A stretch of 64,000 bases of DNA from a virus: the IMG/VR virus record IMGVR_UViG_3300023180_000017; one strand, given 5' to 3'. The notes beneath the pieces are model-generated. The model made no database searches. It had not been told where the DNA came from and saw only the letters and a program-made list of their open reading frames with translations. Of this stretch, positions 1,318-17,210 are shown one piece after another. Within the stretch, counting starts at the first letter, position 1; the number at the start of each line of letters is the position of its first letter. The translations under genes and the position numbers were made by a program.

Positions 1318-2038
1318 AGGCGAAGGGTTTGTTTTAGTTGCAACAAACAGAGTAGGATACTATAAAGCGGCAGTAAAACTAGCTGAATCTATTTTAGACT
1401 TTTGGCCCGAGGCAAGAATAACTCTGTTTACTGAGGAGCGTTGGATAGACCAGACTAGTCCTGAGTGTGCTTTGGGGACAGGGGATTATCAATTATTTGA
1501 GAACGTAATTACATGGGAGGTTCCTAGGCACGTTAGGGCAAAGCTATGGGCTTTGGAACATACACCATATGAAACTACATGTTATCTAGATTGCGACATG
1601 TATTGCGAGCATGAGGACATTAAGGATATCTTTAAACTACTAGGAGATAAGGACTTAGTATTTACAAAGATACGTCCATACAATGCTAAATTAACCAGAC
1701 TTTCTAATTCAGAAGAAATGACTGCACATTGTGGTTGGTTTATATACAATGACAAACCACAAACATTAGCTTTAATGAGTGCTTGGTGGGGAGAGTATTG
1801 TCATCAACAGGAACCTGATTATGACATTGCTCATTATCCAAGAGACTCTATAAAGTGGGATACCTTTACAATGTGGAGGCTTCTCACTTACAGTGATCAC
1901 GGAGTAGATTGGGGATTTATAGACGAGCCAGATGCTCGTTGGAACTTTGTTAACGGTTACAAGGTTGAAGAACTAGGAGATACAGAAAGAGTTTTGTATC
2001 ACTACACTATCCCGCAATGGGACTTGGATGCTAGATGA
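1304..2038 (+). CDS. GT-A fold nucleotide-diphospho-sugar glycosyltransferase
   Basis: KLWALEHTPYETTCYLDCD (DxD motif in its typical context), N-terminal GFVLVAT strand, RWNF. Confidence 0.75.
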   Translation: MAKRKGEGFVLVATNRVGYYKAAVKLAESILDFWPEARITLFTEERWIDQTSPECALGTGDYQLFENVITWEVPRHVRAKLWALEHTPYETTCYLDCDMYCEHEDIKDIFKLLGDKDLVFTKIRPYNAKLTRLSNSEEMTAHCGWFIYNDKPQTLALMSAWWGEYCHQQEPDYDIAHYPRDSIKWDTFTMWRLLTYSDHGVDWGFIDEPDARWNFVNGYKVEELGDTERVLYHYTIPQWDLDAR

Positions 2039-2685
2039 GATGGATAAACGTCGGTGAAGAATTATTAGAAATTCTAACACCATATTCAGATTGGTTCTTT
2101 TCTCAAGACTTAACTGAACTAGAGCAATCTATAGATACTAAAAGAGCAGGAGATGAAACTTTAGAGACTGCCTGCGGTGAAGAGTATCTTAAAATGATTG
2201 TAGAAAAAGATGGAGAACACATAGGATATCCAGAACATACTAGATCCATAGATATTTTAATGGATGGAAGAGCACCTAGAGAACACAGGGAAGCCTGTCA
2301 AAAACTTAATCAAGAGCTTTGTTCTTATTTAGGTGCTAGAAATCAAGCAGTTCAAGTTTTTTATCCTAAAGATGGTTTCATGGGATGGCATAATAATTGG
2401 AATGCACATGGTTATAATATTTTGTTATCTTGTACTCCTAATGGAAACGGATTTTTTAGATATAGAGATCCGTTGACACACGAAATAATAACAATGAAAG
2501 ATAAGCCTGGCTGGACTGCTAAGGTTGGTTATTACGGAAGGGGAAGAGAGCCAGACAAAGTTTATTATCATTGTGCTGGCTCACATGAGCCACGTGTAAC
2601 TTTAGGGTTTGTTATTCCTAATGCAGATATGTGGAGAAATATGATTGAGGACATATCTGGGGAAGACGCCTCGATGTTTAGTTAA
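2035..2685 (+). CDS. Cupin/2OG-Fe(II) oxygenase-like protein
   Basis: FYPKDGFMGWHNN ... YYHCAGS..RVTLGF, a double-stranded beta-helix pattern. Confidence 0.55.
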   Translation: MRWINVGEELLEILTPYSDWFFSQDLTELEQSIDTKRAGDETLETACGEEYLKMIVEKDGEHIGYPEHTRSIDILMDGRAPREHREACQKLNQELCSYLGARNQAVQVFYPKDGFMGWHNNWNAHGYNILLSCTPNGNGFFRYRDPLTHEIITMKDKPGWTAKVGYYGRGREPDKVYYHCAGSHEPRVTLGFVIPNADMWRNMIEDISGEDASMFS

Positions 2686-3065
2686 ATATTTATTGCTGTA
2701 ATTTTATTTGTATCTATTTCAACTTGTTCTAAGTCAAAGTTTATACTCACCCCACACCCACAAGAATCCTTTTCCTTAGGGTTTACAAATTTAAAAAATT
2801 CATTTAGACCTTCTGTTTGCCAATCTAATGTCATTCCCACTATGTAAGGTATAGATACTTTATCTATTACTACGCCGAACCTACCATAATCAACAAATAT
2901 ATCATCAGACACATCGCCGTTATCATTAATAGAGTCGAAAACGTATTCAAAGCCAGCGCAACCTCCGCCTGTAATTCCGAGTCGGATGTTTTTAAAGCCG
3001 TCTTTTTCTTGTTTTTCAAGAAGTTTCTGTATCGCATTATCTGTGATTTCGATTACGCTAGACAT
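2682..3065 (-). CDS. iscA: A-type Fe-S cluster carrier (IscA/ErpA/HesB family)
   Basis: IRLGITGGGCAGFEY and NPKEKDSCGCGVS signature motifs. Confidence 0.92.
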   Translation of the reverse strand: MSSVIEITDNAIQKLLEKQEKDGFKNIRLGITGGGCAGFEYVFDSINDNGDVSDDIFVDYGRFGVVIDKVSIPYIVGMTLDWQTEGLNEFFKFVNPKEKDSCGCGVSINFDLEQVEIDTNKITAINI

Positions 3066-3070
3066 AAAAA

Positions 3071-3078
3071 TATTTATA
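3071..3078 (-). promoter_or_regulatory. T4-type late promoter
   Basis: TATAAATA on the minus strand, 5 nt upstream of the iscA ATG. Confidence 0.6.
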
Positions 3079-3079
3079 A

Positions 3080-3757
3080 TTATTTTTTTCCAATAACTTG
3101 GAATCTATCGTAAAACTTTTTACCGTCCCAAGAATAATAGTATTGAATTGTTTTTCCAGAACTATATACTTCTTCTAGCCCAACGTTTTCAATTAGTGCT
3201 TCTGTAGTATCAACACAATTAATACCGTACATTTCCTCAATAACATTAGAAGACTGACAAGCAAATATTGCGTGTTTGTTAGCTGTTATTAGTTCTTGTA
3301 AAGGATACATTTGTTCACACCCTAAAGAGATAACAACATCTACGTTCAGTTGATTTAATTCATCAAAAGCAAACGGAACATCTAGGTTCCAGTGTTGTAT
3401 TTTAATAAATTCTTCTGTTATATAATGCGAGTTAAATACTTTAGAAAGTTCTAAAGCCTCGGGGTCTATATCAACTAAGTGTAATTGTCCTACAGATAAA
3501 TTTTCACACAATAAAGGAACAAGTGGAACACCTAGCCAAGAATTAAGGACTAATATATTAAAGTCGCTTTCTTTCATATAGTGTTCGTCTAAAACTTTTT
3601 TAAGTTCTTCGACTAACCAAATAGCACCTTCCATTGTATTTGGGTTCAGAGACTGTCTAAAGTCATCATGCTTGTGGGGCATTTCATGTTCTACCTTAGC
3701 TAAGCCATCTCCCCAATGTTTTAAATTGTTTAAAAAATTAAAGTTCAAGTTTGACAT
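3080..3757 (-). CDS. Class I SAM methyltransferase-like protein (degenerate motif I)
   Basis: ILVLNSWLG / LVDIDPEALELSK / ISLGCEQM pattern. Start set at MSNLNF; the track extends it to 3781. Confidence 0.55.
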   Translation of the reverse strand: MSNLNFNFLNNLKHWGDGLAKVEHEMPHKHDDFRQSLNPNTMEGAIWLVEELKKVLDEHYMKESDFNILVLNSWLGVPLVPLLCENLSVGQLHLVDIDPEALELSKVFNSHYITEEFIKIQHWNLDVPFAFDELNQLNVDVVISLGCEQMYPLQELITANKHAIFACQSSNVIEEMYGINCVDTTEALIENVGLEEVYSSGKTIQYYYSWDGKKFYDRFQVIGKK

Positions 3758-4427
3758 CTTCTTTTCTTCCCATTGAGTCAAATAGACAAACGTAGGGAAT
3801 TTGTCTATAGACGTGTGTTTCTATATCATGTGGGTATATATATCCTACGTTATAACTATATGCCCATCCTATAGGAAAATATTTAATTCTAGCCACACCA
3901 CGATGGTGGAAAAAATTATCTATTCCTCTATAATACCATAAAATTTGTTTTATATGTTTTTTAAAATACAATGTTATTTCTTCTGTATTTAAATTGTCGT
4001 TCCAACGTAATACAGAAGAGTTTAAGTCTGTATACTTATGAGGTATATGCCTTGTTTCTTTATACTGCGTTTCCATGTCGTGCCAATGTGTTTTTAAAAA
4101 GCACAAACAATCCTCGGGGTCGTAATTAACAAGCTCATCTATATTTCTTTGTATAATAATGTCTAAGTCAAAGAATAATTTTTCTCCTTTTTGTCTTACA
4201 ACATTCTCATCAAACAAATACATTTTATTCCACCAAACTTCTAATTTATTATCGTTTGGCAATGGAATAACTTTTATATCCTCGTGTAAGTTTTTAGGAT
4301 CTTCTGTTAAACAATAAAAATTAAAGTCGCAGGTTATAAACTTTTTACAACTATTGTAAATAGCCTCAACGTGCTTGGGGGAATATTTTGTTCCCCATTT
4401 AACTGTATAGATGTTTAACATTCCCAA
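3738..4427 (-). CDS. Phage GT-A glycosyltransferase (KWG-KY family)
   Basis: VKWGTKYS, FYCLTED, WWNKMYLF, LFFDLD, NSSVLRW. Confidence 0.8.
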   Translation of the reverse strand: MGMLNIYTVKWGTKYSPKHVEAIYNSCKKFITCDFNFYCLTEDPKNLHEDIKVIPLPNDNKLEVWWNKMYLFDENVVRQKGEKLFFDLDIIIQRNIDELVNYDPEDCLCFLKTHWHDMETQYKETRHIPHKYTDLNSSVLRWNDNLNTEEITLYFKKHIKQILWYYRGIDNFFHHRGVARIKYFPIGWAYSYNVGYIYPHDIETHVYRQIPYVCLFDSMGRKEDVKLEL

Positions 4428-5035
4428 TATATCACTTTGTTTGTTGCAGATTGTTTGACTATTGTTTTTCCTAAATAATCTGCTGCTAAATTAATACCTA
4501 TAGTACATTCTTTTTGCCATAATTGTTGTTTATCAAAACCTTCAAAATAATCATCTACAACCATGTAACTTGCTTTAGGCGACCAGTAGATTAAACTATT
4601 AAAAGTAGAGTTTTTGTCATGTGCTGCATCATAATACACTATATCGTAAGTCCCTCTACTGGCTCGGTGTTCGTTCCAAAATATTGGGTAGCTGTAAGGA
4701 ATCTTCTTATGACTAATATTGTAGTCTTTCGTGTTCTTTAAAAAACACTCATAATTTTTTTTGTTTTGTCCTTTCTCTTCCTCAAACATTTTCCAGACAA
4801 AATTTGATGTTGTTGTTGGACTATTATCCCAACAGTCTAAACATTCCACAGAATACTTTATTCCCTTTTTAATACAAATCTCGGACCAAGCAACTGCAGA
4901 CGCTCCTTTCCAACTTCCAATTTCTAGTATATGTACTTCGTCTTTGCCCAACAAGTTAATAACATTTTCAAATACTTCATAATCAAAAACATTACTTATT
5001 TCAGGACTTAACTTTACAATTTCTTCAAAGTTCAT
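4415..5035 (-). CDS. Class I SAM methyltransferase (Methyltransf_24-like)
   Basis: ILEIGSWKGASA, YYDAAH, VVDDY. Confidence 0.8.
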   Translation of the reverse strand: MNFEEIVKLSPEISNVFDYEVFENVINLLGKDEVHILEIGSWKGASAVAWSEICIKKGIKYSVECLDCWDNSPTTTSNFVWKMFEEEKGQNKKNYECFLKNTKDYNISHKKIPYSYPIFWNEHRASRGTYDIVYYDAAHDKNSTFNSLIYWSPKASYMVVDDYFEGFDKQQLWQKECTIGINLAADYLGKTIVKQSATNKVIYWEC

Positions 5036-5837
5036 TCACTGTCCAATGCTTTAATAATTTAGGATCTGCGAGGTCATCTTGTTTTACATGTCCTCGACTG
5101 TTATCCTCAAAAGGAAGTATGTCCACATTAAATACGCAAAGAATGCAACCTTCCCTATATATACCAACTTCTAAATCACCTGACTCCCAGTCCCTTCCTC
5201 TGTTATAGGAGTAGGCAAATTCTGAGGGAAAGTGATCCCATAAGTCTCTCCACTTCCAACTGTGATAATTATCTGTTCCGTCTGTATAAGTGAACCATAT
5301 TTTATCTTGGTTTTGTAATACATCTTCCCATATTACCTCACATTGATCATCGCTCCATACCTGACAAGAGCCGTTGGTATGCGCTCCATGTGCTAACTTA
5401 AATCTTCTTGTTTTCATTGGGCGAGGATCCTGCCACCAAGATCTCATTTTTGTTGGACGTTCCATATTGTAAGTTAGAACAGGTTCTAAATCTCTTTGTA
5501 TTACAACGTCTAAATCAAAAAAGATAAAGCGGCCATGAGGCTTATCATCAGCAAAGTTATGCGTATTAAAAATAAATGTTTTAGGCCTGTCCCAGCACCT
5601 TGCCATTCCAAACTTGAAATCATCGCTGCCAAACCAATACTTAGGATGGATATTAGGAATATCAGGAAATGGTATAACTTTAATGTCATCTAATAGGCCC
5701 TCGCTGTCGTCTGTATAACAGTAAAAATGAAACTCGTGCTTATCGTTTATATTCTTTTTAGACATGTTATATAAACGATTAACATAGTGAGGACCATACC
5801 TGGTTCCCCATTTACAACATACGACATTTACTCTCAT
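5025..5837 (-). CDS. Phage GT-A glycosyltransferase (KWG-KY family)
   Basis: CKWGTRYG, FYCYTDD, CWDRPK, FFDLD, NGSCQVW, YSYNRG. Confidence 0.8.
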   Translation of the reverse strand: MRVNVVCCKWGTRYGPHYVNRLYNMSKKNINDKHEFHFYCYTDDSEGLLDDIKVIPFPDIPNIHPKYWFGSDDFKFGMARCWDRPKTFIFNTHNFADDKPHGRFIFFDLDVVIQRDLEPVLTYNMERPTKMRSWWQDPRPMKTRRFKLAHGAHTNGSCQVWSDDQCEVIWEDVLQNQDKIWFTYTDGTDNYHSWKWRDLWDHFPSEFAYSYNRGRDWESGDLEVGIYREGCILCVFNVDILPFEDNSRGHVKQDDLADPKLLKHWTVNEL

Positions 5838-6091
5838 GATGTCTCCGTCAGGTTTTGTAGAATAAAGTCTCTGCCGTACATCAAACCATAATTTACAAGT
5901 TCACATACAATATTGCTAGATGTATCGTCAAACTGTTCCCTGGGACCTTTAACTACAATAGAAACAAACCTGCCTCCTCTTACAGAATCAATAACGAAGT
6001 CTGTATCCTCATTATTCCAATCATTAAAGGAACCCATATATGCGGTTGACTTTCTTATTTCTCTTGTCGTGTTCATTTTAATACTCCACAT
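5834..6091 (-). CDS. Hypothetical protein
   Basis: 85 aa, overlapping both operon neighbours; the start may be MNTT at 6076. Confidence 0.55.
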   Translation of the reverse strand: MWSIKMNTTREIRKSTAYMGSFNDWNNEDTDFVIDSVRGGRFVSIVVKGPREQFDDTSSNIVCELVNYGLMYGRDFILQNLTETS

Positions 6092-7572
6092 TTTTTATTA
6101 CAAATTAGACTAGGATCTAATTTTAGTTTGTTGGTAAAGTAAGATGTGAAAAATTTGTTAGTGAATATTTTTTTCAATCCGTGTACTTTACAGTTATTAC
6201 TTTTCCAATCGTACAAAATATCTGTTTCCTCGTAAGGATTTATTTTTGCTACTAATATGTTTTTAGCAGTAAATACACATGGAAAAACGTTTCCTTCTTT
6301 ATCAATATAGGCCTTGTTTTCTATTTTTGCTAAGCATCTTACTTGTTTATCAAATTTTACCTTAACGTCTAAATACTCAGCGTCTTTTTGCCTAAGTTTG
6401 ATTGTCTCCAACTCTATTAACTTGTAGTCAGGCAAGTCTTCTTTTTCCTCTACCTCTACTACATTTATTTTTTCTTCGACTTTATTTTCAATAAAGTTAA
6501 ATCCTGAGAACTTATGTTTTTTAGAAAGTGCTTTAGCTTTCTCTATGTCCTCATCTGTTTGTGTTGTTCTAGTGTATTGCCAAAATACTCTAGCTCCACT
6601 TTGTAACAATGCCTCAGCATTTGACATCTGTTTTTCTATTTCTCTATTATATATGTCGTTTATGGTTACTGTGATGTTTCCCATATTTTTAAATAGTATG
6701 CCTACTGTTCCCCACCAATACTTGTCAAAGTTTGTTAAATCTGTTAGTAAGTCAATACTAATATTTCTTGTTTCCATTAGATATTCACATATATCATAAA
6801 AGTCTTTACAGTTAGTAGGTTCTTCTTCATCATTGGATAATACTATTTTAGACATTCTAGCTAAATTTGTATAGTCCTCAGTAAAGATATTTTTTATTTC
6901 TTCTACAGTAAATCCACATATTTCTATTTCAAGTGCTCTCGGTAGATATGGATATAAATCTGTAGATCTATTATAACAGGATTCTATATAGCTGTCAACT
7001 TTATGTGTATACCAAAAAGGAAAAGCTACTATAGGATCATCTAGACTTACAGGATATTCTTTATTTTTAGAATTTAGAAATGGTAAAGTATCCATTTCAT
7101 TAACTTGAAATTCTTGTTTAAATTCGTGATTATAAAAAGTTAAATCGTTTTCTTCTCTTTCCCATTTTTGTAAAACGTTGCTAACAAATTTGTTATGGTT
7201 AACGAAGTATGCAACATTGCCGTCTTGCATAATACACTTGTCTATACCAGCAGTTTTATACTCCAGGATTTTCTCTGGATTGTTTAAAAGAATATTGGGT
7301 GTAACAAATAAAGATACGCCATATTTTGGTGTATGTTTTATTAAATCTATCTCTAACCATTCATGTCCATATTTCGGTACATGTATTTTAAAGGGCATGG
7401 CATACCCTTTGATTTTGTTTGTCTCTACCATTTCATCTAGTTCTTCTTGTGTAGTAAAGACAACAAACTCAAAAGGATCCTTTATCAAGTTTTTTGCTTG
7501 AGTGTAAAAATTATTTACTTGGACTTGGGTATACTTGGTATCAAGTAGATTTGCTATTAAAGTTAGCTCCAT
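6073..7572 (-). CDS. Fusion of a degenerate GT-A domain and a degenerate radical-SAM barrel with a SPASM/twitch-like C-terminus
   Basis: N-terminus TKYTQVQVNNFYTQAKNLIKDPFEFVVFT parallels the neighbouring GTs but has no DLD. C-half follows the phage radical-SAM pattern without CxxxCxxC and ends CLAK..YIDKEGNVFPC...CNKKC. Confidence 0.6.
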   Translation of the reverse strand: MELTLIANLLDTKYTQVQVNNFYTQAKNLIKDPFEFVVFTTQEELDEMVETNKIKGYAMPFKIHVPKYGHEWLEIDLIKHTPKYGVSLFVTPNILLNNPEKILEYKTAGIDKCIMQDGNVAYFVNHNKFVSNVLQKWEREENDLTFYNHEFKQEFQVNEMDTLPFLNSKNKEYPVSLDDPIVAFPFWYTHKVDSYIESCYNRSTDLYPYLPRALEIEICGFTVEEIKNIFTEDYTNLARMSKIVLSNDEEEPTNCKDFYDICEYLMETRNISIDLLTDLTNFDKYWWGTVGILFKNMGNITVTINDIYNREIEKQMSNAEALLQSGARVFWQYTRTTQTDEDIEKAKALSKKHKFSGFNFIENKVEEKINVVEVEEKEDLPDYKLIELETIKLRQKDAEYLDVKVKFDKQVRCLAKIENKAYIDKEGNVFPCVFTAKNILVAKINPYEETDILYDWKSNNCKVHGLKKIFTNKFFTSYFTNKLKLDPSLICNKKCGVLK

Positions 7573-8320
7573 GCCAATGCCTCAAAAGTTTCTCATCTTG
7601 TAAATCACTAATCTTAATTTGATCCTTAGCTGCAGGATCGGGTGTTAAATCTGTGTTAAAAATACAAACTTTGTATTCTTTTCTATATTTATACTTGTCG
7701 TTATCCTCTTTCCAATGAGCTCCTCTGTTATAAGAGTATACCCAATCAAAAGGAATGTTGCCCCAGAAATTACGCTGTCTCCAATAATGGTAGTTATCTG
7801 ATCCTTTAAAAAATGTTTTGAACACAACATCTTGATGCTCTAAAACATCGTAATATATTTGCTCACATTGATTGTATTCCCAGCACATCATACTTGTATT
7901 ATAATATGTGCCACGAATGTCTATAAAAAATCTATCGTGTTGTTGTCCGTCTGGTTGCCATTTGGAATGTACAAGTCTTGGTTTTTTTGCCAATATTTCT
8001 AAGTCGTTTATATTGTTTTGAATTATTACATCTAAATCAAAATAGCAATACTTGCCTTTATAACCTAAAATATTGTGTGCATTAAACACAAAGAATTTAG
8101 CTCTATCCCAACAATAGTTATCTTTACCAAACCAGTATTTAGGATGCAATGGTTGTACATCTGGAATAGGTAGATATTCACATTCTAATCCTGCAGGATC
8201 GTCTGTGAAACAGGTGAATGTACACGGCCGTGTAAAGTTTTTTTCGACCATGTTTTTGAGGTTGTTTACATATTCAGGAGAATATTTATCACCCCATTTG
8301 ATGCAAATAAAGTTCATCAT
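7541..8320 (-). CDS. Phage GT-A glycosyltransferase (KWG-KY family)
   Basis: IKWGDKYS, CFTDD, CWDRAK, YFDLD, NTSMMCW, YSYNRG; close paralogue of 5025-5837. Confidence 0.8.
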   Translation of the reverse strand: MMNFICIKWGDKYSPEYVNNLKNMVEKNFTRPCTFTCFTDDPAGLECEYLPIPDVQPLHPKYWFGKDNYCWDRAKFFVFNAHNILGYKGKYCYFDLDVIIQNNINDLEILAKKPRLVHSKWQPDGQQHDRFFIDIRGTYYNTSMMCWEYNQCEQIYYDVLEHQDVVFKTFFKGSDNYHYWRQRNFWGNIPFDWVYSYNRGAHWKEDNDKYKYRKEYKVCIFNTDLTPDPAAKDQIKISDLQDEKLLRHWHGANFNSKST

Positions 8321-8945
8321 AATGCTTTGCTATATTTTCCTCTATACTTTCTTGTCCATTTAATAAAGCAATTGTTGCCTTTGGTTTTATCTTTCCGCCG
8401 TCAAACCAAAAGGAATATACTTCTCCTTCTGGGAAGTGTTCAAAAGTAAATCCCTCATGAAATAGAAATCTATCATCTCCTGCATATTTTACCATATAAT
8501 AGTCGGAGTTTTCCTTCCAATAATTATATATGTGAGTAGCATCTTGCCACATCATGACACTAGAGTTATAGTTACTTAAATAATTATAAGACCAGTCTTT
8601 AGATTTGATGAACGCTAGATCATTAGGTTTCCAATAAGTATAACAAATCATAGGGGTTTTGTCAAGCATTTTAAAAAAATTATCTACATTTTTTTGTATA
8701 CGAATATCTAAATCTAGGTACAATACAGAGCCTAGATTATTATAACGCATTAACTTAACCTTTTCCCAATGTCCTTCTATTTCCCAAGTTATAGGAATAA
8801 CTTGTATATTTGGATCTAGACCCTCAGGATTATCTGTGACACAGACAAAATTGTGGGGTCTTGTTTTTTCATAAATAGAATTAACGTCATTCGACGTGTA
8901 TTTGTTTCCGTATTTTAATGTTAAAATGGTGTTCATTGTAATCAA
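8289..8945 (-). CDS. Phage GT-A glycosyltransferase (KWG-KY family)
   Basis: LKYGNKY, CVTDN, HWEKV, LYLDLD, NSSVMMW, GDDRFL; likely ATG at 8936. Confidence 0.8.
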   Translation of the reverse strand: MITMNTILTLKYGNKYTSNDVNSIYEKTRPHNFVCVTDNPEGLDPNIQVIPITWEIEGHWEKVKLMRYNNLGSVLYLDLDIRIQKNVDNFFKMLDKTPMICYTYWKPNDLAFIKSKDWSYNYLSNYNSSVMMWQDATHIYNYWKENSDYYMVKYAGDDRFLFHEGFTFEHFPEGEVYSFWFDGGKIKPKATIALLNGQESIEENIAKHYDELYLHQMG

Positions 8946-8952
8946 AATTTCT

Positions 8953-8960
8953 TATAAATA
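8953..8960 (+). promoter_or_regulatory. T4-type late promoter
   Basis: TATAAATA upstream of the fibre operon. Confidence 0.8.
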
Positions 8961-8979: not shown

Positions 8980-9309
8980 TTGATGGCTACCGTAAAAAAC
9001 ATTGTTATAGATCAGGGTACTACCTTCGATTTCACAATAGGACTAACTAATGACGATGGATCTGGTAAAGATCTATCTAATTATACAGTACGCGCTCAAC
9101 TTAGAAAAAGCTATTACTCTAATACTTATACAAGTTTTACAACCTCTAAAGTAGATTTAGAAGGCGAAATAACCATTTCATTAACTGCTACACAAACTTC
9201 CGAATTGAAGGCTGGAAGATATGTGTATGATATAGAGATTGAAGGAAATAGTGAAACGGTTAGAGTTTTAGAGGGTATTATAACCATAACTCCGGAGGTA
9301 ACACGATAA
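8980..9309 (+). CDS. Virion structural Ig-like adaptor protein (BppU N-terminal-like)
   Basis: IDQGTTF...DLSNYTVRAQLRK...GRYVYDIEI...RVLEGIITITPEVTR, a pattern common in T4-like tail regions. Confidence 0.65.
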   Translation: MMATVKNIVIDQGTTFDFTIGLTNDDGSGKDLSNYTVRAQLRKSYYSNTYTSFTTSKVDLEGEITISLTATQTSELKAGRYVYDIEIEGNSETVRVLEGIITITPEVTR

Positions 9310-9545
9310 TGGCAACATTTAAGGTAACAGTACCTTTAACGAATAGAAGTGGAACAGTTTCTAATGTTACAACAAAGTCTAAAGTTACCACAGCTACAAC
9401 CTTAGATAATTTAAATGGTGTAGATACAGCTGGGGCAGAAGATGGTTATACATTGGTTTATGACGCAGCAACAGGAAACTGGGAGGCAGCACCCGCTAGT
9501 GAGTTGGCAACAACGGTAACAAGATTGGATGGCGGTACTTACTAA
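9309..9545 (+). CDS. Small fibre/adaptor protein ending LDGGTY
   Basis: 78 aa; LDNLNGVD..DGYTLVYD...GNW trimer-type motif. Confidence 0.65.
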   Translation: MATFKVTVPLTNRSGTVSNVTTKSKVTTATTLDNLNGVDTAGAEDGYTLVYDAATGNWEAAPASELATTVTRLDGGTY

Positions 9546-9599
9546 ATTATATTATATTATTTTAGCTAAAATAAAAATTTTTAATTAGGAGAAAAATAA

Positions 9600-11090
9600 A
9601 TGGCAACAGTTATTCAGATTAAAAGATCTAGTGGTGTAGCCGCACCTACTACAAGTGACTTAGCCGAAGCCGAATTAGCGTATAGCCAAGATGCATCCAA
9701 TGACGGTGCAAGTGCTATTATGTACATTGAGTCCTTGGACTCAAACGGCTCAGCGGTTATTCAGAAAGTAGGTGGTAAATACTACACTGATCTTGTTGAT
9801 GGAGCTACAAACTCCAACACAGCCTCTGCTATTGTTAAGAGGGATTCCTCAGGCAACTTTACAGCAGGCACAATTACTGCTGACTTAACCGGTGATGTAA
9901 CTGGTACGGTTAGTGATGTAAGCAACCACGACACAGATGACATTAGTGAGGGTTCAACCAACCTTTACTTTACAGATGCAAGAGCAAGAAGTGCAATCAG
10001 TGTTGGTGGTGATTTAAGTTACGACTCCTCAACAGGTGTTATTAGCTTCACAAACGACGCTGGTGACATTGAGAGTGTTGTAGCAGGTACAGGTTTAACA
10101 GGTGGTGGCACATCAGGAGACGTTACACTTAACGTTGATATGTCAGCATTTGATACCGATGATTTAGGCGAAGGTTCTTCTAACCTTTACTTTACAGATG
10201 CAAGAGCACAAGGTGCTATTTCAGTAGACTCTACACTTAGCAAGTCGGCAGGACAAATTAGCATGCCGGCTACCGGTGTTACTGCTACTTCTTATGGTTC
10301 TACAACAGCGATTCCTGTTATTACAGTTGACGCACAAGGTAGAATTACATCAGCAAGTACAGCAGCAATTGCTACATCATTTGATATTTCAGATGGTTCA
10401 AACACTGATACAGTTAACGGTGGTGAAACTCTTACTTTTGCAGGAACATCTAACGAAACAGATGTTACTGTTTCTGGTAACCAAGTAGCAATTGGTCTTG
10501 TTACTAACCCAACAATTGGTGGTAACTTAACAGTTTCTGGTAACTTAACAGTAGCTGGTACTACTACACAGGTTGACACCACAAACTTAACAGTTAGCGA
10601 TCCTTTGTTCCAATTAGCTTCTGGCAACAATAGCTCAGATGCAGTAGACATTGGTTTCTTCGGTTTATATGACACCTCAGGCTCTCAAGACCTTTATGCA
10701 GGTTTATTCAGAGACGCTAACGATGGTAAGTGGAAGCTGTTTAAAGACACACAATCTGCACCTACAACAACTGTAGACACATCAGCAACAGGTTACTCTG
10801 TAGCTACAATGGTAGCAAACATTGAGGGTGATGTTACTGGTGACTTGACAGGTGATGTAACCGGTAATGTTACTGGTTCATTATCAGGCGGTACAGTTTC
10901 TGGGTTGTCAGCAGCAATTGGTGTTGCAGACGGTGGTACAGGAGCTACTTCGTTTACATCTAACGGTATCGTATACGGTAACGGTACAGGCGCTTTACAA
11001 GTTACAGCAGCCGGTGCCAATGGACAGTTCTTGGTTTCTAATAACGGAACACCTGAGTGGGCATCTACTTTAGATGGTGGTTCTTATTAA
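9600..11090 (+). CDS. Tail/whisker fibre protein
   Basis: SD AGGAG; N-terminal IQIKRSSG..PTTSDL..AELAY; TDDxxEGSxNLYFTDARA repeats; GNLTVSG, GDVTG and DGGTGA fibre motifs; ends LDGGSY. Confidence 0.8.
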   Translation: MATVIQIKRSSGVAAPTTSDLAEAELAYSQDASNDGASAIMYIESLDSNGSAVIQKVGGKYYTDLVDGATNSNTASAIVKRDSSGNFTAGTITADLTGDVTGTVSDVSNHDTDDISEGSTNLYFTDARARSAISVGGDLSYDSSTGVISFTNDAGDIESVVAGTGLTGGGTSGDVTLNVDMSAFDTDDLGEGSSNLYFTDARAQGAISVDSTLSKSAGQISMPATGVTATSYGSTTAIPVITVDAQGRITSASTAAIATSFDISDGSNTDTVNGGETLTFAGTSNETDVTVSGNQVAIGLVTNPTIGGNLTVSGNLTVAGTTTQVDTTNLTVSDPLFQLASGNNSSDAVDIGFFGLYDTSGSQDLYAGLFRDANDGKWKLFKDTQSAPTTTVDTSATGYSVATMVANIEGDVTGDLTGDVTGNVTGSLSGGTVSGLSAAIGVADGGTGATSFTSNGIVYGNGTGALQVTAAGANGQFLVSNNGTPEWASTLDGGSY

Positions 11091-11102
11091 TTTAAATTAA
11101 CA

Positions 11103-11128
11103 AGGGGGGTTTAGCCCCCCTACATTTT
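11103..11128 (+). terminator. Probable intrinsic terminator
   Basis: AGGGGGGT-TTA-GCCCCCCT stem-loop followed by ACATTTT, just after the fibre gene. Confidence 0.6.
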
Positions 11129-11131
11129 GGA

Positions 11132-11677
11132 GTGAAAATGGAAGCACAAAATACAAATGATGCCTTAATTAATGAATATATTAAAAGTTTATCAAAGGCG
11201 TTAACTGATAAAACAATGGAATCTGTTTTACATGAGGCAAAGTATAAACAGGCAAGCGTAGAACTTGAAAAGGCTAACAATTACATTGTTGAACTTAGAA
11301 ATAGTTTTGAAGAACAAACAGAGGTTTCTACTAAAAAAGGTTCAGATGAGATTGAAGGTCTTCTAGATACAACAAGGGTTTTGGAAGAAAAAAATGCGAA
11401 ACTTTTAGAAAAAGTTGAGCGTTTAAAAGAAGATAATAAAAATCTTTTGGCAAAGGTTGAAGGAAAGCCAACAGAGATTGTTGTAGACGAAGCTAGAGTA
11501 AAACATTATGAAAATACTAATGCTATACTTAGCAGAGAATTAGAGCAGGCAGATAAAAAAATTGAGTCATTAAAATTACAGTTAGCACAATATTTAGAAA
11601 CACAGGAGAATTTAAATGGCGATAGTAATCAAGCCCAAGAGATCGGAGACAGCAAGCTCGATTCCGACTACAAGTGA
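11132..11677 (+). CDS. Coiled-coil protein (possible fibre chaperone)
   Basis: Heptad-rich E/K/L sequence, SD GGAG; probable ATG at 11138. Confidence 0.6.
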   Translation: MKMEAQNTNDALINEYIKSLSKALTDKTMESVLHEAKYKQASVELEKANNYIVELRNSFEEQTEVSTKKGSDEIEGLLDTTRVLEEKNAKLLEKVERLKEDNKNLLAKVEGKPTEIVVDEARVKHYENTNAILSRELEQADKKIESLKLQLAQYLETQENLNGDSNQAQEIGDSKLDSDYK

Positions 11678-11972
11678 TCTAGAGGTCGGCGAATTTGCTA
11701 TTAACACAGCCGATAAAAAGCTGTATGTTAGAGATTCTAGCGATAATATAAAAGCTATTGGGGGTGGGTTAGCAGTCAATGACGGAAGTACATCAGCAGA
11801 TGTTAGTACCATATCTTTCTTGGATACTACATTCGGAAACTTTACCGTCGACACAACCACATCCGCAGGAACTGCAATTGTTCGCTGTACTCAAACAGCA
11901 GATTTAGATTATGGATCGATCACAGATTCTGTTATTGGTTATAACTCAGTAGATTACGGAGGGTTAACCTAA
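11616..11972 (+). CDS. Small fibre/adaptor protein
   Basis: IKPKRSETASSIPTTSDLEVGEFAINTADKKLY N-domain; C-terminal DYGSI..DYGGLT. Confidence 0.7.
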   Translation: MAIVIKPKRSETASSIPTTSDLEVGEFAINTADKKLYVRDSSDNIKAIGGGLAVNDGSTSADVSTISFLDTTFGNFTVDTTTSAGTAIVRCTQTADLDYGSITDSVIGYNSVDYGGLT

Positions 11973-12196
11973 TGGCAGCGAGAGTAAAATTAAGACGTGG
12001 TACTACAACACAACATGCCTCCTTTACAGGGTCGCAGGCTGAAGTTACTGTAAATACCACTAAAAATACTTTGGTACTACATGACGGTAGCACACAGGGG
12101 GGACACGAGATATTGAGAGCAGATTTAGATAATCTGCCTAGCAACGCTACAATACCCGGGGCCCAGGTTGATGCACTTGACGGTGGAACATACTAG
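11972..12196 (+). CDS. Mtd N-terminal-domain-like small adaptor ending LDGGTY
   Basis: LRRGTTTQHASFTGSQAEVTVNTTKNTLVLHDGSTQGG. Confidence 0.7.
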   Translation: MAARVKLRRGTTTQHASFTGSQAEVTVNTTKNTLVLHDGSTQGGHEILRADLDNLPSNATIPGAQVDALDGGTY

Positions 12197-12207
12197 GAGA
12201 ATAGACA

Positions 12208-13932
12208 ATGCCAACAATATTACAATTAAGACGTGGTACAACAACAGAACACGCGTCGTTTACAGGCTCTGAAGGTGAAGTAACCGTCAACACTTCTAAA
12301 GATACTTTAGTAGTTCATGATGGCAGTACCCAAGGGGGATTTGAGATAGCATTAGCAGACGGTTCTAACCTGACAGGCGCTAGTGGTATTGATACAGATA
12401 ATCTCTCTGAGGGTTCTAGTAATCTTTACCATACAACAGCAAGAGCAAGATCAGCAATTAGTGTAAGTGGAGACTTAACATATGATAGCAGCACAGGTGT
12501 TATTAGTTTTACTAATGATGCAGGTGATATTGAAAGTGTAGCTGCGGGCTCTGGTTTAACCGGAGGCGGTACAACCGGAGAAGTTACACTTAATATTGGA
12601 GCAGGAACAGGTATTACTGTTAATGCTGATGATATTGCAGTTAATATGTCGGCGTTTGACACCGATGATTTATCAGAAGGTTCAACAAACGTCTACTACA
12701 CAGATGCTAGAGTAAAATCTTTATTAACAACCTTAGACGGAAGTATTGTGCCTAGTGCAGATGTTACTTACGACTTGGGTTCATCTACAAAGCAATGGAG
12801 GGATATTTATGTAGGTCCTGGTTCGTTATATGTTAACGGACAACAGGTTGTATCCGATAACTCAGGTACTATTACAATTTCTGCAGACTCCAACCAAAAC
12901 GTTGCTGTACAAACTAGCGGATCTGGTGATATTGAACTTGATCCTACAGGTTCAGGTACTGTTCAAATTAAAGGTACACTTCAAATTGAAGATGGACAAA
13001 ACATTACAAACAGTGCAGGAAACGATATTACATTTGCTAACAACATTAAAGTTGATCAGATTACAACCAAATCTACTGATACTAACCTAGTATTAAGTGG
13101 TAACGGTACAGGTAATGTAACTGTTAATGACGACATCAACATTACAGGTAACCTAACAGTAGGCGGTACAACCACTACAGTTAACTCTGAGACTATTAAT
13201 TTAGCAGACAATACTATTGTTTTAAACAGTAACTTTACATCTGGTTCACCCACAGAAGATGCTGGACTTAGCATCAGCAGAGGCGGTTCAACTGCCAAAA
13301 CATTCTTGTGGGACGAAACAAATGATAAGTGGACGATTGGTTCAGAGACATTTGTAGCTGGAACAGTTGAAGCAAACTTAACAGGTGACGTAACCGGTGA
13401 TGTTACAGGTAATGCCGACACAGCAACAGCACTAGCAACTGCCAGAACTATTGGTGGAGTTAGTTTTGATGGTACTGCTAACATCAACTTACCAGGTGTT
13501 AACGCAGCCGGTAACCAAGATACCTCAGGAAATGCTGCCACAGCAACTGCTTTAGAAACTGCAAGAACTATTGGTGGAGTATCATTTGATGGTACTGCTA
13601 ATATCAACTTGCCTGGAGTTAACACAGCCGGTGACCAAGATACCTCAGGAAATGCAGCTACAGCAACATCTGCAGCAGCCTGGACAACAGCTAGAACTCT
13701 TAGCTTAGGCGGAGATTTATCTGGTTCAGTTAGTATAGATGGAAGTGCTAATGCTTCATTAACTGCAACAATTGGTGCAGGTACAGTAGAGTTTGCCATG
13801 TTAGCAGGTGCTAATGTTCAGACAAGCGGTGAGTCCTTTAGTGATTCAGATACTGTTTTGATGACAGCAGCAGCAGCTAATAGCAGATTTAGAATCAACA
13901 TATATGATTCTAGTGGTACATTATTAAACTAA
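12208..13932 (+). CDS. Tail/whisker fibre protein with an Mtd-N-like domain
   Basis: Same LRRGTT..HDGSTQGG N-domain; TDDLSEGS repeats; YDLGSSTKQWRDIY; ARTIGGVSFDGTANI repeats. Confidence 0.8.
   Translation: MPTILQLRRGTTTEHASFTGSEGEVTVNTSKDTLVVHDGSTQGGFEIALADGSNLTGASGIDTDNLSEGSSNLYHTTARARSAISVSGDLTYDSSTGVISFTNDAGDIESVAAGSGLTGGGTTGEVTLNIGAGTGITVNADDIAVNMSAFDTDDLSEGSTNVYYTDARVKSLLTTLDGSIVPSADVTYDLGSSTKQWRDIYVGPGSLYVNGQQVVSDNSGTITISADSNQNVAVQTSGSGDIELDPTGSGTVQIKGTLQIEDGQNITNSAGNDITFANNIKVDQITTKSTDTNLVLSGNGTGNVTVNDDINITGNLTVGGTTTTVNSETINLADNTIVLNSNFTSGSPTEDAGLSISRGGSTAKTFLWDETNDKWTIGSETFVAGTVEANLTGDVTGDVTGNADTATALATARTIGGVSFDGTANINLPGVNAAGNQDTSGNAATATALETARTIGGVSFDGTANINLPGVNTAGDQDTSGNAATATSAAAWTTARTLSLGGDLSGSVSIDGSANASLTATIGAGTVEFAMLAGANVQTSGESFSDSDTVLMTAAAANSRFRINIYDSSGTLLN
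13411..13670 (+). repeat. 120-bp tandem coding duplication
   Basis: 13441-13560 and 13561-13680 are nearly identical, encoding ARTIGGVSFDGTANINLPGVNxAGxQDTSGNAATAT twice. Confidence 0.85.
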
Positions 13933-13944
13933 TAGGTTAAATAT

Positions 13945-14256
13945 ATGAATAATGTCGTCATAAAACCTAAAAGAAGTGAGACAGCTTCATCCTCTCCTAC
14001 TGCTAGTGATCTAGCAGTGGGGGAAATGGCTATCAATCTCTCTGATAAAGCAATATTTGTTAAAGACTCAAATGGTAACATTGTGCAAGTTAGCAATTAT
14101 TCTGTATCAGATCCGAGTCTTGTATTTCCAACAGGAGATCTAGGCTCTTTGTCTAGCGGAACGGATGCTTTTGGAGTTAGTTTAGTCGCTAACTTTGATA
14201 ATAAAGTAACTCCCGGAGGACAAGAAAAAACAGAAGATTTAGGAGCATTAAGTTAA
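13945..14256 (+). CDS. Small fibre/adaptor protein, paralogue of 11616-11972
   Basis: IKPKRSETASSSPTASDLAVGEMAIN; DLGSL..DLGALS. Confidence 0.7.
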   Translation: MNNVVIKPKRSETASSSPTASDLAVGEMAINLSDKAIFVKDSNGNIVQVSNYSVSDPSLVFPTGDLGSLSSGTDAFGVSLVANFDNKVTPGGQEKTEDLGALS

Positions 14257-15224
14257 TGGCATTATCTACAAGGCAAGAACTTATTGATTACTGTCTCAGG
14301 AGGCTAGGGTTTCCTGTTATAGAGATCAATGTTGATGAAGATCAAATCAATGATAGGATTGACGATGCCTTGCAGTATTGGCAAGAGTATCATTTCGATG
14401 GTACAGAAAGAACTTATGTTCAGCACGAGATAACAGGAAGCAAATTAAATTTACAGGCTCCTGTGGCAAGTAACTTTAACAAAGGAGAGAAAGTTACAGG
14501 GAATACATCTGGTGCAACAACTGTTATACATGCCGCAAGTGGTTCTGAAATAACTGTAGAAAAAGTTTCTGGAACATTTCAAGCAGGTGAGCAAATTCAA
14601 GGCTCAGAATCTGGATACGTTGCTACTTTATCTTCGGGGTCTCATTATGAAGAGGGAGATATTGAAAAGGGTTGGATCCCAATTTCCAATGGCATTACAG
14701 GTATTGTGAGGCTGTTTAATTTTGGAGGTGCAGCCACAGCTAACACAAGAGACGGCAACCTCTTTGATATTATGTATCAGTTTAGACAAAATGATCTATA
14801 TAATCTAATGGGTGCGGATATGCAATATTATACAATAGTGCAATCTCACTTAACAACATTAGAACAATTATTAGTATCATCTAGACAGATTAGATGGAAT
14901 AGAAAAACTAATAAACTTTATATAGATACAGATTGGGATAAAACATTCAACCCTGGTGACTATGTTGTTGCTGAGGCATACGCAATTTTAGACCCTGCAG
15001 ATTATGCCGAAGTATATGATGACATGTTCCTTAAAAAATATGCCACCGCTCTCATTAAAAGACAGTGGGGCGAAAATATGAAAAAGTTTGGGGGGATACA
15101 ATTACCAGGAGGAGTTACACTCAACGGAGATCAAATATTTCAAGAAGCAGTGCAGGAAATAAATATTATAGAAGATGAAATGCAAAAGAGATATGAATTG
15201 CCTCCAACGTTTATGGTAGGATAA
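14256..15224 (+). CDS. gp13: Neck protein gp13
   Basis: RQELIDYCLRRLGFPVIEINV; YATALIKRQWGENMKKF.GIQLPGGVTLNG. Confidence 0.93.
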   Translation: MALSTRQELIDYCLRRLGFPVIEINVDEDQINDRIDDALQYWQEYHFDGTERTYVQHEITGSKLNLQAPVASNFNKGEKVTGNTSGATTVIHAASGSEITVEKVSGTFQAGEQIQGSESGYVATLSSGSHYEEGDIEKGWIPISNGITGIVRLFNFGGAATANTRDGNLFDIMYQFRQNDLYNLMGADMQYYTIVQSHLTTLEQLLVSSRQIRWNRKTNKLYIDTDWDKTFNPGDYVVAEAYAILDPADYAEVYDDMFLKKYATALIKRQWGENMKKFGGIQLPGGVTLNGDQIFQEAVQEINIIEDEMQKRYELPPTFMVG

Positions 15225-15225
15225 G

Positions 15226-15975
15226 ATGCCTACAAATTTTTATTTTCAATCAGGCGATGCAATTGGAGTTACCTCTGAACAACGTCTTATTGAAGACCTA
15301 ATCATAGAGTCCTTAAAAATATACGGACACGACATCTATTACATGCCTAGAACGCTTGTAAATGAAGATACTATCTTTGATGAAGATCAGTTATCTCAAT
15401 TTACACAGGCATATCCTTTAGAAATGTATTTGGAAAATGTAAACGGCTTCGAGGGAGAAGGAGAGCTGTTTAGTAAGTTTGGTATAGAGATAAGAGATCA
15501 AGCTACCTTTATATTGGCAAGACGTAGATGGGAAGAAATGGTTCACTCTACAGAGGGAGAATTTCAGTTAGATTCTCGTCCTGTCGAAGGAGATCTTTTA
15601 TATTTTCCAAAGACAAATTCTATATTTGAAATTAAGTACGTGGAGTTTGCGGACCCTTTTTATCAGGCAGGCAAGCTATATGTATTTAAATTGCAATGTG
15701 AATTGTTTGTATACAGTTCAGAGGTTCTCGATACTGGAACAGATGCAGATGATATCATGGAGACAAACAGTCTAGATATGTTACGATATCAATTCTTACT
15801 TGAGGACGGCGGACTGTTTACTTTGGAAGATGCTAGTACAATGATATTAGAAGAATACTCATCACAAAAAACTAATGCCAATACAGATAATGAGGATTTC
15901 GCAAATCTAAATTCCGTTGAGGGTATATTAGATTTCTCTGAAAGAAATCCGTTTGGAGAGCTATTAGATGTTTAA
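15226..15975 (+). CDS. gp14: Neck protein gp14
   Basis: EQRLIEDLIIESLKIYG.DIYYMPR; RPVEGDLLYFP; DFSERNPFG. Confidence 0.93.
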   Translation: MPTNFYFQSGDAIGVTSEQRLIEDLIIESLKIYGHDIYYMPRTLVNEDTIFDEDQLSQFTQAYPLEMYLENVNGFEGEGELFSKFGIEIRDQATFILARRRWEEMVHSTEGEFQLDSRPVEGDLLYFPKTNSIFEIKYVEFADPFYQAGKLYVFKLQCELFVYSSEVLDTGTDADDIMETNSLDMLRYQFLLEDGGLFTLEDASTMILEEYSSQKTNANTDNEDFANLNSVEGILDFSERNPFGELLDV

Positions 15976-16768
15976 GAATAAAACATTTTACAACCAACAC
16001 ATAAAAAAGGCTATTATAGCTTTTGGTACCATCTTTAATAATATAAACATTGAAAGGAAGGATAGTGATGGTGTAGTTAATCAGTCGCTAAGGGTTCCTT
16101 TGGCATACTCAACAAAACAAAAGTTTTTATCTAGAATTAGAGCTGTGCCTGATGAACAGTTCAGAGATGTTCAATTAATTCTTCCTAGAATGGGTTTTGA
16201 AATAACTTCTTTAACATATGATCCTTCTAGAAAGATATCACCCATACAAAAAAATAGAGCAGTTGGTGCCGGAGACGACACTAATACAGTTAGACAGTCT
16301 TTTGTTTCTACTCCATATAATATGCAGCTGTCTTTATATGTGTTTGCTAAAAATCAAGAAGATGCTTTACAAATTGTAGAGCAAATTTTCCCATACTTTA
16401 ATCCAGATTTCAATGTTACAGTTAATGAACTTCCTGAACTAGGTATTAAAAGAGACATTAAAATCACATTAGACAGCGTAGATTATGAGGACCAATATGA
16501 AGGAGATTTCTCTCAAAGACAGAGTATTATTTGGACTTTAAATTTTAATATGAGAATTAATTTCTTTGGCTATGTAGGATCAGCAACCGTTATTAAAGAG
16601 TCTATTGCAAGGCTTTATACAGATATAAACTTAGATGCCTTAAAGCAAGTAAAAGTTTCTGGTGCTATAGGTTCTGATGGAACTATAAATAAAGAGTTAA
16701 CTCCAGCAGATGATTATGATTACATAACCAACATATTGGAAAGTTTTGAGGGTGAAGATGTCGGCTGA
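15968..16768 (+). CDS. gp15: Tail sheath stabiliser/terminator gp15
   Basis: IIAFGTIFNNI; VPLAY..KQKF; LPRMGFEI; QIVEQIFPYFNP. Confidence 0.92.
   Translation: MFKNKTFYNQHIKKAIIAFGTIFNNINIERKDSDGVVNQSLRVPLAYSTKQKFLSRIRAVPDEQFRDVQLILPRMGFEITSLTYDPSRKISPIQKNRAVGAGDDTNTVRQSFVSTPYNMQLSLYVFAKNQEDALQIVEQIFPYFNPDFNVTVNELPELGIKRDIKITLDSVDYEDQYEGDFSQRQSIIWTLNFNMRINFFGYVGSATVIKESIARLYTDINLDALKQVKVSGAIGSDGTINKELTPADDYDYITNILESFEGEDVG
16684..16691 (+). promoter_or_regulatory. T4-type late promoter inside gp15, upstream of the terminase genes
   Basis: TATAAATA. Confidence 0.55.
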
Positions 16769-17210
16769 AAATCCATTTGAGAAATTAGATAAAAAATTTA
16801 AAACAAGTCCTACGGCTGCTTTAGATAAGACATTAACTAAAGTTAGGGAAGAAAAGGATTTGCCTGTTCCTGCTGAAACGCATGATAAGCAGTTAGAATC
16901 AGATTTTCAAGAAGCCAGAGATATTTTAAAAAGAACAGCTACTTATAGTGAAGAGGCAATACAGGGCATCCTTAATATCGCAAAAAATAGTGATCACCCT
17001 AGGGCTTATGAGGTTGCAGGACAGTTAATTAAAACTCTACAAGACAATGCACAGGGTATGTTAGACGTGCAGGACAAAGCAAAAAGAGTTAAAGGTGAGA
17101 CAGGAAAGTCTTCAAAGGTAACAAATAATAATCTATTTGTTGGAAGCACAAAAGATCTTTTAAAGGCACTTGGTAGAGAAGAAAAAGATCCGAAAGTTAT
17201 TGAGGGGTAA
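16758..17210 (+). CDS. gp16: Terminase small subunit gp16
   Basis: SDHPRAYEVAGQLIK; NNNLFVGSTKDL; start at MSAENP (the track gives 16746). Confidence 0.92.
   Translation: MSAENPFEKLDKKFKTSPTAALDKTLTKVREEKDLPVPAETHDKQLESDFQEARDILKRTATYSEEAIQGILNIAKNSDHPRAYEVAGQLIKTLQDNAQGMLDVQDKAKRVKGETGKSSKVTNNNLFVGSTKDLLKALGREEKDPKVIEG

Follow-up and report, generated by a model that had tools for sequence, protein, structure and literature searches.

The window analysed here, a stretch of 64,000 nucleotides (nt) from IMG/VR virus record IMGVR_UViG_3300023180_000017, is part of a complete phage record of 162,417 bases and carries a cluster of genes for six fibre and adaptor proteins, designated A to F in gene order (Table 1). 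As judged from comparisons of their sequences, these proteins are likely to build a fibre of several segments, connected end to end through two types of peptide-into-domain joint. The socket of each joint would be an N-terminal domain of ~45 residues, either of the gp37 type (N1) or of the Mtd_N type (N2), and the plug would consist of the C-terminal 5-8 residues of the trimer before it, carried on a variable linker. Two classes of plug are distinguished, the G-plug with the consensus [LI]-D-G-G-[TS]-[YF]-stop and the h-plug with the consensus D-[bulky hydrophobic]-G-x-[LIV]-(S/T/A)-stop. Genome adjacency suggests that G-plugs pair with N1 and h-plugs with N2. A first-pass annotation of the window had proposed that C-terminal peptides dock into the next N-domain, leaving open which plug fits which socket.

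Terminal motifs and their conservation

The terminal features described in the first-pass annotation were all recovered at their positions. A, B and D end exactly in LDGG(T/S)Y-stop, the N-termini of the six open reading frames (ORFs) sort into both of the families described, and several of the proteins, with lengths of 74-118 amino acids (aa), consist of little beyond an N-domain and a C-terminal motif. C and F end in a D(Y/L)G motif as claimed (DYGGLT and EDLGALS, respectively), but this motif had been reported as paired, and each protein instead contains three DxG repeats. Two further genes of the module, encoding a p132/LtfC-like protein and a coiled-coil protein (cc), were absent from that description.

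When the complete genome was screened with a permissive pattern for the C-terminus ([DN]-x-G-x-hydrophobic, ending 0-2 residues ahead of the stop), 6 of the 791 ORFs matched, five of them in the cluster, with a composition-based expectation of ~1.6 per 206 genes (about 0.75% per ORF). The N1 profile detected three copies and Pfam Mtd_N two copies in the same genome, all of them in the module. Given this expectation, the confinement of motifs and domains to the cluster indicates that the termini are more than a product of chance.

Conservation was followed in eighty related loci, whose gp13 is 69-100% identical. The module was syntenic across these loci, and every member was kept along with its termini in dozens of the contigs. 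In A, the DGGT at the end was invariant across relatives. C and F are paralogues that share an invariant terminal D-x-G and the three DxG repeats, with orthologues varying between L and F at the end. The database contained 44 homologues of D, which are 67-86 aa long and as little as about 55% identical; each of them keeps [LI][DN][GC]GT[YF] at the end or a few residues from it, preceded by a linker that varies from 0 to 20 residues. This degree of conservation makes it extremely unlikely that the short ORFs are functionless, decaying leftovers of fibre-gene recombination, with N-terminal stubs fused to C-terminal scraps. Although they are made up solely of those two parts of fibre genes that recombine most, and D nearly duplicates residues 1-45 of E, their length and both termini are conserved in many contigs at identities as low as 55%, their starts overlap the preceding stops (ATGA), and frame disruption was seen in none of about 30 relatives. 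Covariation of the D tails (DGGTY or DCGTYS) with the N-terminus of E was also considered, and no informative change was found.

A different module occupies the equivalent position in loci L021, L038, L045 and L034/L036/L044 (gp13 76-78% identical). It encodes an N1 protein of 197-297 aa ending in ..RWTA[IL]VKT.EV.Q and a 187-aa protein ending in [VI]DGG[TI]A, the gene of which overlaps the 5' end of the gene for a 915-1187-aa fibre that begins with IQLRRD..SW..VNP.L..GE. By its sequence, the IQLRRD-type N-terminus may represent a third socket type, used with a DGG-type plug.

Socket domains

N2 corresponds to Pfam Mtd_N (PF18454), which matched D with 58.1 bits (E-value 8e-16) and E with 49.1 bits (E-value 5e-13) at a cut-off of 26.3 bits. 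A profile built from 39 N-termini of D and E was compared with the PDB and aligned with residues 1-51 of the Mtd structure 1yu0 (E-value 9e-23). N1 is a homologue of the first ~50 residues of gp37 from T-even phages: a tblastn search with residues 6-50 of F gave 57.8% identity over 45 aa at an E-value of 2e-8 and 863 phage records, BLASTP against gp37 of phage JK38 gave an E-value of 8e-16, and PHROG tail-fibre N-termini matched as well. The N1 and N2 profiles aligned with each other in register (hhalign probability 70%, E-value 4e-5), so that the two are probably distant relatives sharing one fold.

Trimeric gp36 binds the N-terminal region of gp37 (PMC3004832). Mtd is located at the ends of the BPP-1 tail fibres (PMC2408619), its beta-prism being the presumed attachment domain (PMC10743442). 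Judging from the alignments, both N-domain families are homologues of domains that are known or presumed to receive another fibre trimer. On this comparative basis, the proposed docking of a C-terminal peptide into the next N-domain is supported by homology to known joints and by the adjacency described below.

Profile searches of the PDB with A, C/F and N1 yielded nothing significant. In an AlphaFold2 (AF2) monomer model of C, the N1 part reached a predicted local distance difference test (pLDDT) score of ~75 and the rest remained below 50; in the model of D, the domain scored 65-71 and the tail coil ~50. The models thus provide weak evidence that the tails are not confidently folded back on their own chains. 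A comparison of the C model, whose confidence is too low for use, with about 48,000 PDB chains gave only weak tied matches, the best being the collagen XVIII trimerisation domain (Z 4.2) and the N-terminus of ORF18 from Geobacillus virus E2 (Z 4.1); Mtd had a Z of 2.2.

Adjacency of plugs and sockets in IMG/VR

Co-occurrence of motif and domain was counted across phage genomes, as the first-pass annotation had suggested, and a pairing of tail class with socket type was found. Socket genes were sampled from IMG/VR with two degenerate DNA patterns, yielding about 240 loci, and the upstream tail was taken from the same-strand ORF ending ≤200 nt before the socket gene. Tails were scored as G-type ([DEN][GC]Gx[YF], followed by 0-2 aa and the stop) or h-type (D[non-G/C]Gx[hydrophobic]). 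The 121 unique starts of N1 genes included 113 with an upstream ORF, whose tails were G-type in 70 cases, h-type in 3 and other in 40. For Mtd_N, an upstream ORF was present at 119 of 123 unique gene starts, with 9 G-type, 63 h-type and 47 other tails. At the level of clusters (70% identity of the socket), the table was [[51,2],[1,17]] (Fisher p = 3e-13). The nine G-type tails found ahead of Mtd_N genes all seem to stem from D-E pairs of the window's clade (checked for four, within the first 78 rows). The background rates of the two motifs in the sampled loci were 4.0% and 1.7%; these values are inflated by further members of fibre chains, and the composition estimate (~0.75% per ORF) is therefore the better null.

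Two other pairing rules were tried. Pairing of DGGxY with Mtd_N was rejected (9 of 119 in the sampling), and a rule based on the last residue, with aromatic residues assigned to N1 and aliphatic ones to N2, was not strict: DLGAF(S) precedes Mtd_N, and the C/F orthologues vary between L and F.

The sampled upstream proteins had lengths of about 60 to 2500 aa, and the contigs ranged from small phages to 290-kb jumbo phages. The spacing between plug gene and socket gene varied from -4 to about +200 nt, with conservation at the protein level. Proteins of ≤150 aa with both a socket and a plug were almost confined to the window's clade, and all were converters (N1/h-plug or Mtd_N/G-plug) apart from a 62-aa N1 protein ending in IDGGNF (L216). 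The sockets were located at the extreme N-terminus in about 240 cases. Fused plug-socket forms (Rosetta stones) were absent from HTVC008M, and among the about 240 sockets there was a single doubtful internal N1. At this locus (L297), 86 in-frame codons with no nearby ATG lie upstream (..VLTVDPVLKIQLKRSS..), which may reflect a fused joint or an unusual start codon.

The other tails before Mtd_N genes included NLFWSEAQA, FATAIA[IV]ALG and YV[CV]II; coiled-coil ends were also seen upstream of socket genes. NLFWSEAQA or FATAIA[IV]ALG was found at loci L106, L117, L119, L141, L146, L152, L158, L166 and L170; L112, L150, L162 and L168. The 71-aa protein encoded before gp13 in phage Melnitz ends in ..GITFAIALG. 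By their sequences, such recurrent tails may be further plug classes.

Two tail classes that track the N-domain type of the next gene (p = 3e-13) would be unexpected if the tails were pure intramolecular caps or foldon-like folding nuclei, each closing its own trimer, with the adjacency resulting from the clustering of fibre genes and from recombination cassettes. Such a role would agree with the beta-hairpin-like G[YQ]xLxxxxxGxxxW elements that precede the tails of A and B, with the three internal DxG repeats of C and F, which suggest a structural repeat rather than a free peptide, and with the conserved hairpin-like tail that E retains despite its predicted terminal position; fibre shafts have, moreover, clearly been recombined. 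Caps are nevertheless unlikely: the linker before the tail varies from 0 to 20 aa, the 74-aa D lacks a shaft to be capped, conservation is at the protein level in the face of variable spacing, and the gene products of T-even phages and BPP-1 are physically joined at such ends (PMC3004832, PMC2408619).

Plugs in model and cultured phages

The gp36 protein ends in ...QDFGYY-stop in Tequatrovirus JK38 and in ...QDFGYYS-stop in Winklervirus Virsaitis27, with gp37 starting 9 nt past the gp36 stop codon in both phages. In BPP-1, the product of bbp9, the gene directly before mtd, has a T7-type fibre N-terminus and ends in ...ADLGGIA-stop. A sample of nine cultured-phage lineages with Mtd_N genes was inspected, and the immediately upstream protein ended in D-[LFW]-G-x-[LIV](A/T/-) in six of them (S-TIP37, Roseobacter CRP-3, HTVC008M, Vibrio K437b, BPP-1 and a gut Syntrophomonadaceae phage); in the other three (S-SSM7, S-CAM1 and Phosso), it was without an h-type ending. 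Judged by eye, the plug-bearing proteins of S-TIP37 and Vibrio K437b also carry a T7-type N-terminus. If the plug-bearer is attached to the tail in this way, the Mtd_N protein must sit distal to it. Melnitz contains a series of genes for an LtfC-like protein, an A-like protein (...NGGTF), a B-like protein (N1 ... DGGTYS) and an N1 fibre, followed by gp13, in which a G-plug before N1 occurs twice. A literature search with the terminal motif strings found no phage paper among the publications covered. Recent T4 and fibre-atlas papers contain no residue-level description of the gp36-gp37 contact, and the papers searched gave no atomic description of the T4 gp36-gp37 or the BPP-1 Bbp9-Mtd joint.

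With the plug apparently on the tail-attachment protein and the socket on the next protein in T7-like phages, it appears quite unlikely that each N1 or N2 protein binds to the collar, neck or baseplate independently, forming separate whiskers with outward C-terminal motifs that bind the host, the capsid or retracted fibres. The module does lie at the position of fibritin (wac), directly before gp13 and apparently in one late transcription unit, F overlaps gp13, and a collar of the p132/LtfC type could present many binding sites (PMC10713586). However, the N-terminus of gp37 binds gp36 and not the virion (PMC3004832), whiskers made of proteins of 74-118 aa would be shaftless, and receptor binding is an unlikely role for tails that stay invariant in phages with different hosts.

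Proposed fibre chain

In the proposed chain, the p132/LtfC-like protein would form a collar near the neck, and A would be anchored there and present its G-plug. B (N1, G-plug) would serve as the first rod and E (N2, no plug) as the distal rod, with C (N1, h-plug), D (N2, G-plug) and F (N1, h-plug) acting as small key converters or hinges. Within each joint, the invariant Asp of the plug and its free carboxylate at the C-terminus are probably in contact with an invariant pair of basic residues in the socket (KR-S or RR-G), and the terminal hydrophobic residue of the plug is probably accommodated in a pocket of the trimeric prism. Since the adaptors combine mismatched sockets and plugs, they would act as converters and not self-polymerise.

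The window contains three G-plugs (A, B, D) and three N1 sockets (B, C, F) as well as two h-plugs (C, F) and two Mtd_N sockets (D, E). The only plug-only protein is A, whose gene adjoins the collar gene, and the only socket-only protein is E. These counts fit a single linear chain running from the root (9309) to the tip (12208). Four linear orders satisfy the code, among which A-B-C-D-F-E is favoured because it keeps the largest number of gene adjacencies. Gene order as the strict order of assembly was discarded, as it would need three different plug-socket rules; under the code, E and F alone change places. Minimal relatives, with A, B, one C/F and E, fit A-B-C/F-E.

Several observations weigh against this reading. 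Relatives that have D but lack F (records 43-48% complete) break the 1:1 count; to agree with the code, they must either use their single C/F twice (A-B-CF-D-CF-E) or have a further gene that the incomplete records do not cover. B, with its N1 socket and G-plug, could self-polymerise under the simple code, which argues for finer specificity or ordered assembly. The code also has exceptions, namely DFGYY before N1 in T-even phages, DLGAF(S) before Mtd_N, and D, with its DGGTY, directly upstream of E (Mtd_N) throughout the clade; two connector pairs, as originally proposed, are thus borne out by the adjacency over about 240 loci, but their strict orthogonality is not. E does lack a plug motif, as had been noted, and is the socket-only, predicted distal tip, but its C-terminal tail is itself conserved (...IY[DN]xxGTLLN). 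About 35-40% of the socket genes have other upstream tails or no upstream gene. The clusters are phylogenetically non-independent, so that p = 3e-13 overstates the case, and the cross-lineage adjacency may in part be inherited as a junction cassette. The monomer models, which cover single chains only, are of low confidence.

Beyond the window, the chances are about even that these joints belong to a general two-key connector system of tailed phages, in which DGGx[YF] is directed to the gp37-N type and D-bulky-G-x-[LIV] to Mtd_N across myo-, sipho- and podoviruses. The marine clade of the window would have taken this system furthest, with a five-joint fibre made by way of 74-118-aa converters and possibly variable in length or branched. 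The partners of fibre proteins and the order in which they are joined are usually unknown, both in uncultured and in many model phages, and a predictive terminal peptide would let assemblies be read from sequence. If the proposal is true, the last six residues encoded by a fibre gene could identify its partner, and many unannotated genes of 60-120 aa in fibre clusters would be explained as roots and adaptors. It also names candidate determinants for the T4 gp36-gp37 and BPP-1 Bbp9-Mtd joints and would provide natural, compact trimer-to-trimer connectors, usable in laboratory phage work to exchange fibre segments. In marine T4-like relatives of OM43/SAR11 phages, a segmented fibre that is rooted in a T5-type collar seems to occupy the position at which T4 has fibritin.

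Comparison with known systems

The module shares with the gp36-gp37 joint of T-even phages an N1 domain that is homologous to the N-terminus of gp37, the region bound by trimeric gp36 (PMC3004832). As in A and B, which lie upstream of N1 genes, gp36 ends in a D-x-G-x-aromatic terminal peptide (DFGYY-stop), and the T-even long tail fibre likewise consists of several trimers placed end to end with small connector proteins. The plug of T4 itself is a hybrid, with a bulky second residue and an aromatic end. In contrast to T4, the genes of the module precede gp13, outside the T4-type fibre cluster, the root consists of a p132/LtfC-type collar and a stub, and up to five joints of two key types would be present, compared to a single joint of this type in T4. 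Searches of the complete genome gave no match at an E-value ≤0.1 to the gp36 body domain (PF03903) or the gp9/gp10 N-domain (PF07880); as a positive control, the same searches gave 6e-45 and 4e-75, respectively, in phage JK38. Neither gp34 nor gp35 was detectable in the complete genome, and the Fibritin_C foldon had no match in the module, its best score in the genome (12.5 bits) lying elsewhere and below the cut-off of 21 bits. As no gp36 body, gp9/gp10 N-domain or foldon is detectable, the module is orthologous neither to the T4 long tail fibre nor to fibritin, and only the joint is shared.

D and E begin with Mtd_N, as does Mtd of BPP-1, where Bbp9 ends in DLGGIA-stop right before mtd and Mtd trimers are placed at the fibre ends (PMC2408619, PMC10743442). 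BPP-1 differs in having one joint and, as receptor binder, a C-type lectin that is diversified by a retroelement. In the module, Mtd_N is the N-terminal domain of a 74-aa adaptor and of a Gly/Thr-rich fibre, and no diversity-generating retroelement (DGR) was seen.

LtfC of phage DT57C forms a dodecameric collar, in which the lateral fibres are held via their N-terminal strands by strand addition (PMC10713586). The first gene of the module encodes a p132/LtfC homologue and is followed by the gene for A, a protein with a strand-rich N-terminus, just as LtfA follows LtfC (PMC10713586). T5 and DT57C, with its branched LtfA-LtfB, differ from the window phage, which is T4-like and contractile and has this gene next to the neck genes. 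The anchor of the module is, in addition, a separate 78-aa protein, and the downstream peptide/prism joints have not been described for T5.

Anchor-branch systems of receptor-binding proteins (G7C, CBA120, Klebsiella podoviruses) use T4 gp10-like branching domains, onto which a conserved N-terminal peptide or domain docks; these are modular sets with short conserved terminal segments. In the module, the small element is C-terminal and the domain N-terminal, and no gp10-like domain was found in the complete genome.

Genes of the module and genome setting

The coordinates of the module and its flanking features are given in Table 1.

Table 1. Features of the fibre module in the window.
Feature	Position	Strand	Evidence or remark
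T4-type late promoter box TATAAATA	8953..8960	+	~22 nt before the first module gene (ATG 8983)
Collar/anchor protein, homologue of T5 p132 / DT57C LtfC	8983..9309	+	phrog_3304 1e-19, phrog_1084 1e-27
A, 78-aa plug-only putative root stub	9309..9545	+	start overlaps collar-gene stop
B, 496-aa fibre, gp37-N-type socket (N1), LDGGSY-stop	9600..11090	+	phrog_697/15769, N1 profile
cc, coiled-coil protein	11132..11677	+	kept in relatives
C, 118-aa putative converter adaptor: N1 socket, three DxG repeats, DYGGLT-stop	11616..11972	+	termini, N1 profile
D, 74-aa putative converter adaptor: Mtd_N socket (N2), length-variable linker, LDGGTY-stop	11972..12196	+	Pfam PF18454 8e-16
E, 574-aa socket-only fibre (Mtd_N), predicted distal tip	12208..13932	+	Pfam PF18454 5e-13; many tail-fibre PHROGs
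F, 103-aa putative converter adaptor, C paralogue: N1 socket, three DxG repeats, EDLGALS-stop	13945..14256	+	overlaps gp13 start
gp13-type neck protein (context)	14256..15224	+	phrog_211 8e-43; next gene matches T4_neck-protein Pfam

A profile of 14 orthologues of the collar gene product matched p132 (7qg9_R, E-value 8.6e-4, query residues 5-107) and LtfC (8hqz_Q, E-value 1.7e-3) in the PDB over nearly the full length; the Pfam LtfC match (E-value 0.06) was below the cut-off. The ORF finder placed the start of this gene at a TTG (8980), and the ATG at 8983 gives MATVKN.., in agreement with MATV.N.. in all relatives. Counterparts of the collar gene are found at the equivalent place in Melnitz and HTVC008M.

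A has a beta-strand-rich N-terminal part, a GYTLVYD..G.W hairpin and a variable linker before its plug. Its family aligned with residues 1-68 of the 1020-aa HTVC008M fibre encoded after the LtfC-like gene (hhalign 92.8%, E-value 3.8e-7), so that A looks like the virion-anchor module of a fibre that was split off and given a plug. It also matched the 90-aa Melnitz protein at the same place that ends in NGGTF.

The N-terminal ~50 aa of cc are conserved (..N[DE]xLINEYI..), whereas the versions of the protein in relatives measure between 53 and 191 aa. The gene overlaps the start of C by 62 nt. The family gave bZIP-like noise as its only matches and is without a foldon; the protein may act as a chaperone for fibres or as a structural strut.

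The shaft of E varies between relatives (214-862 aa) and is followed by the conserved tail ...RINIYDSSGTLLN. B and E align with 37% identity over 369 residues (BLASTP, E-value 2e-35) and share a shaft module (DTDD.SEGS.NLY.T.ARA...SFTNDAGDIESV..G.GLTGGGT; window positions 9930-10250 and 12390-12750, + strand) that is far more alike than the rest; this likeness is read from the sequences as a sign of recent exchange between both fibre genes. A 167-aa ORF with a fibre-like N-terminus, located about 760-1260 bases ahead of the window (window coordinates -1262..-759, + strand), ends in ..VYDSSGSRIN, resembling the E tail ..IYDSSGTLLN, and a 69-aa database protein (P0035) comprises Mtd_N and an E-type tail and nothing more. 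By sequence, the E-type tail looks like a third conserved terminal motif.

Profiles from Pfam and PHROG as well as tblastn identified the genes from 14256 to 17210 and onward as gp13, gp14, gp15 and the terminase of a T4-like myovirus. The start of gp13 marks the end of the module, whose last gene is directly upstream of gp13, as is the T4 fibritin gene; with the neck genes directly following, the fibre cluster sits at the wac position of T4. The gp13 of the window phage is at most about 40% identical to that of any cultured phage (tblastn; match to a cyanophage gp13), and the DNA of the module had no megablast match among cultured phages. The phage belongs to a marine T4-like clade, and its cultured relatives Melnitz and HTVC008M infect OM43 and Pelagibacter (SAR11), respectively. 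Downstream of the promoter box in Table 1, the next T4-type late box on the same strand is at 16684, so that fibre and neck genes are apparently transcribed as a single late unit. Glycosyltransferase-like genes form a block at positions 1304-8945 of the window, mostly on the - strand and divergent from the Ser/Thr/Gly-rich fibre operon, and glycosylation of the fibres by the products of these adjoining genes is conceivable.

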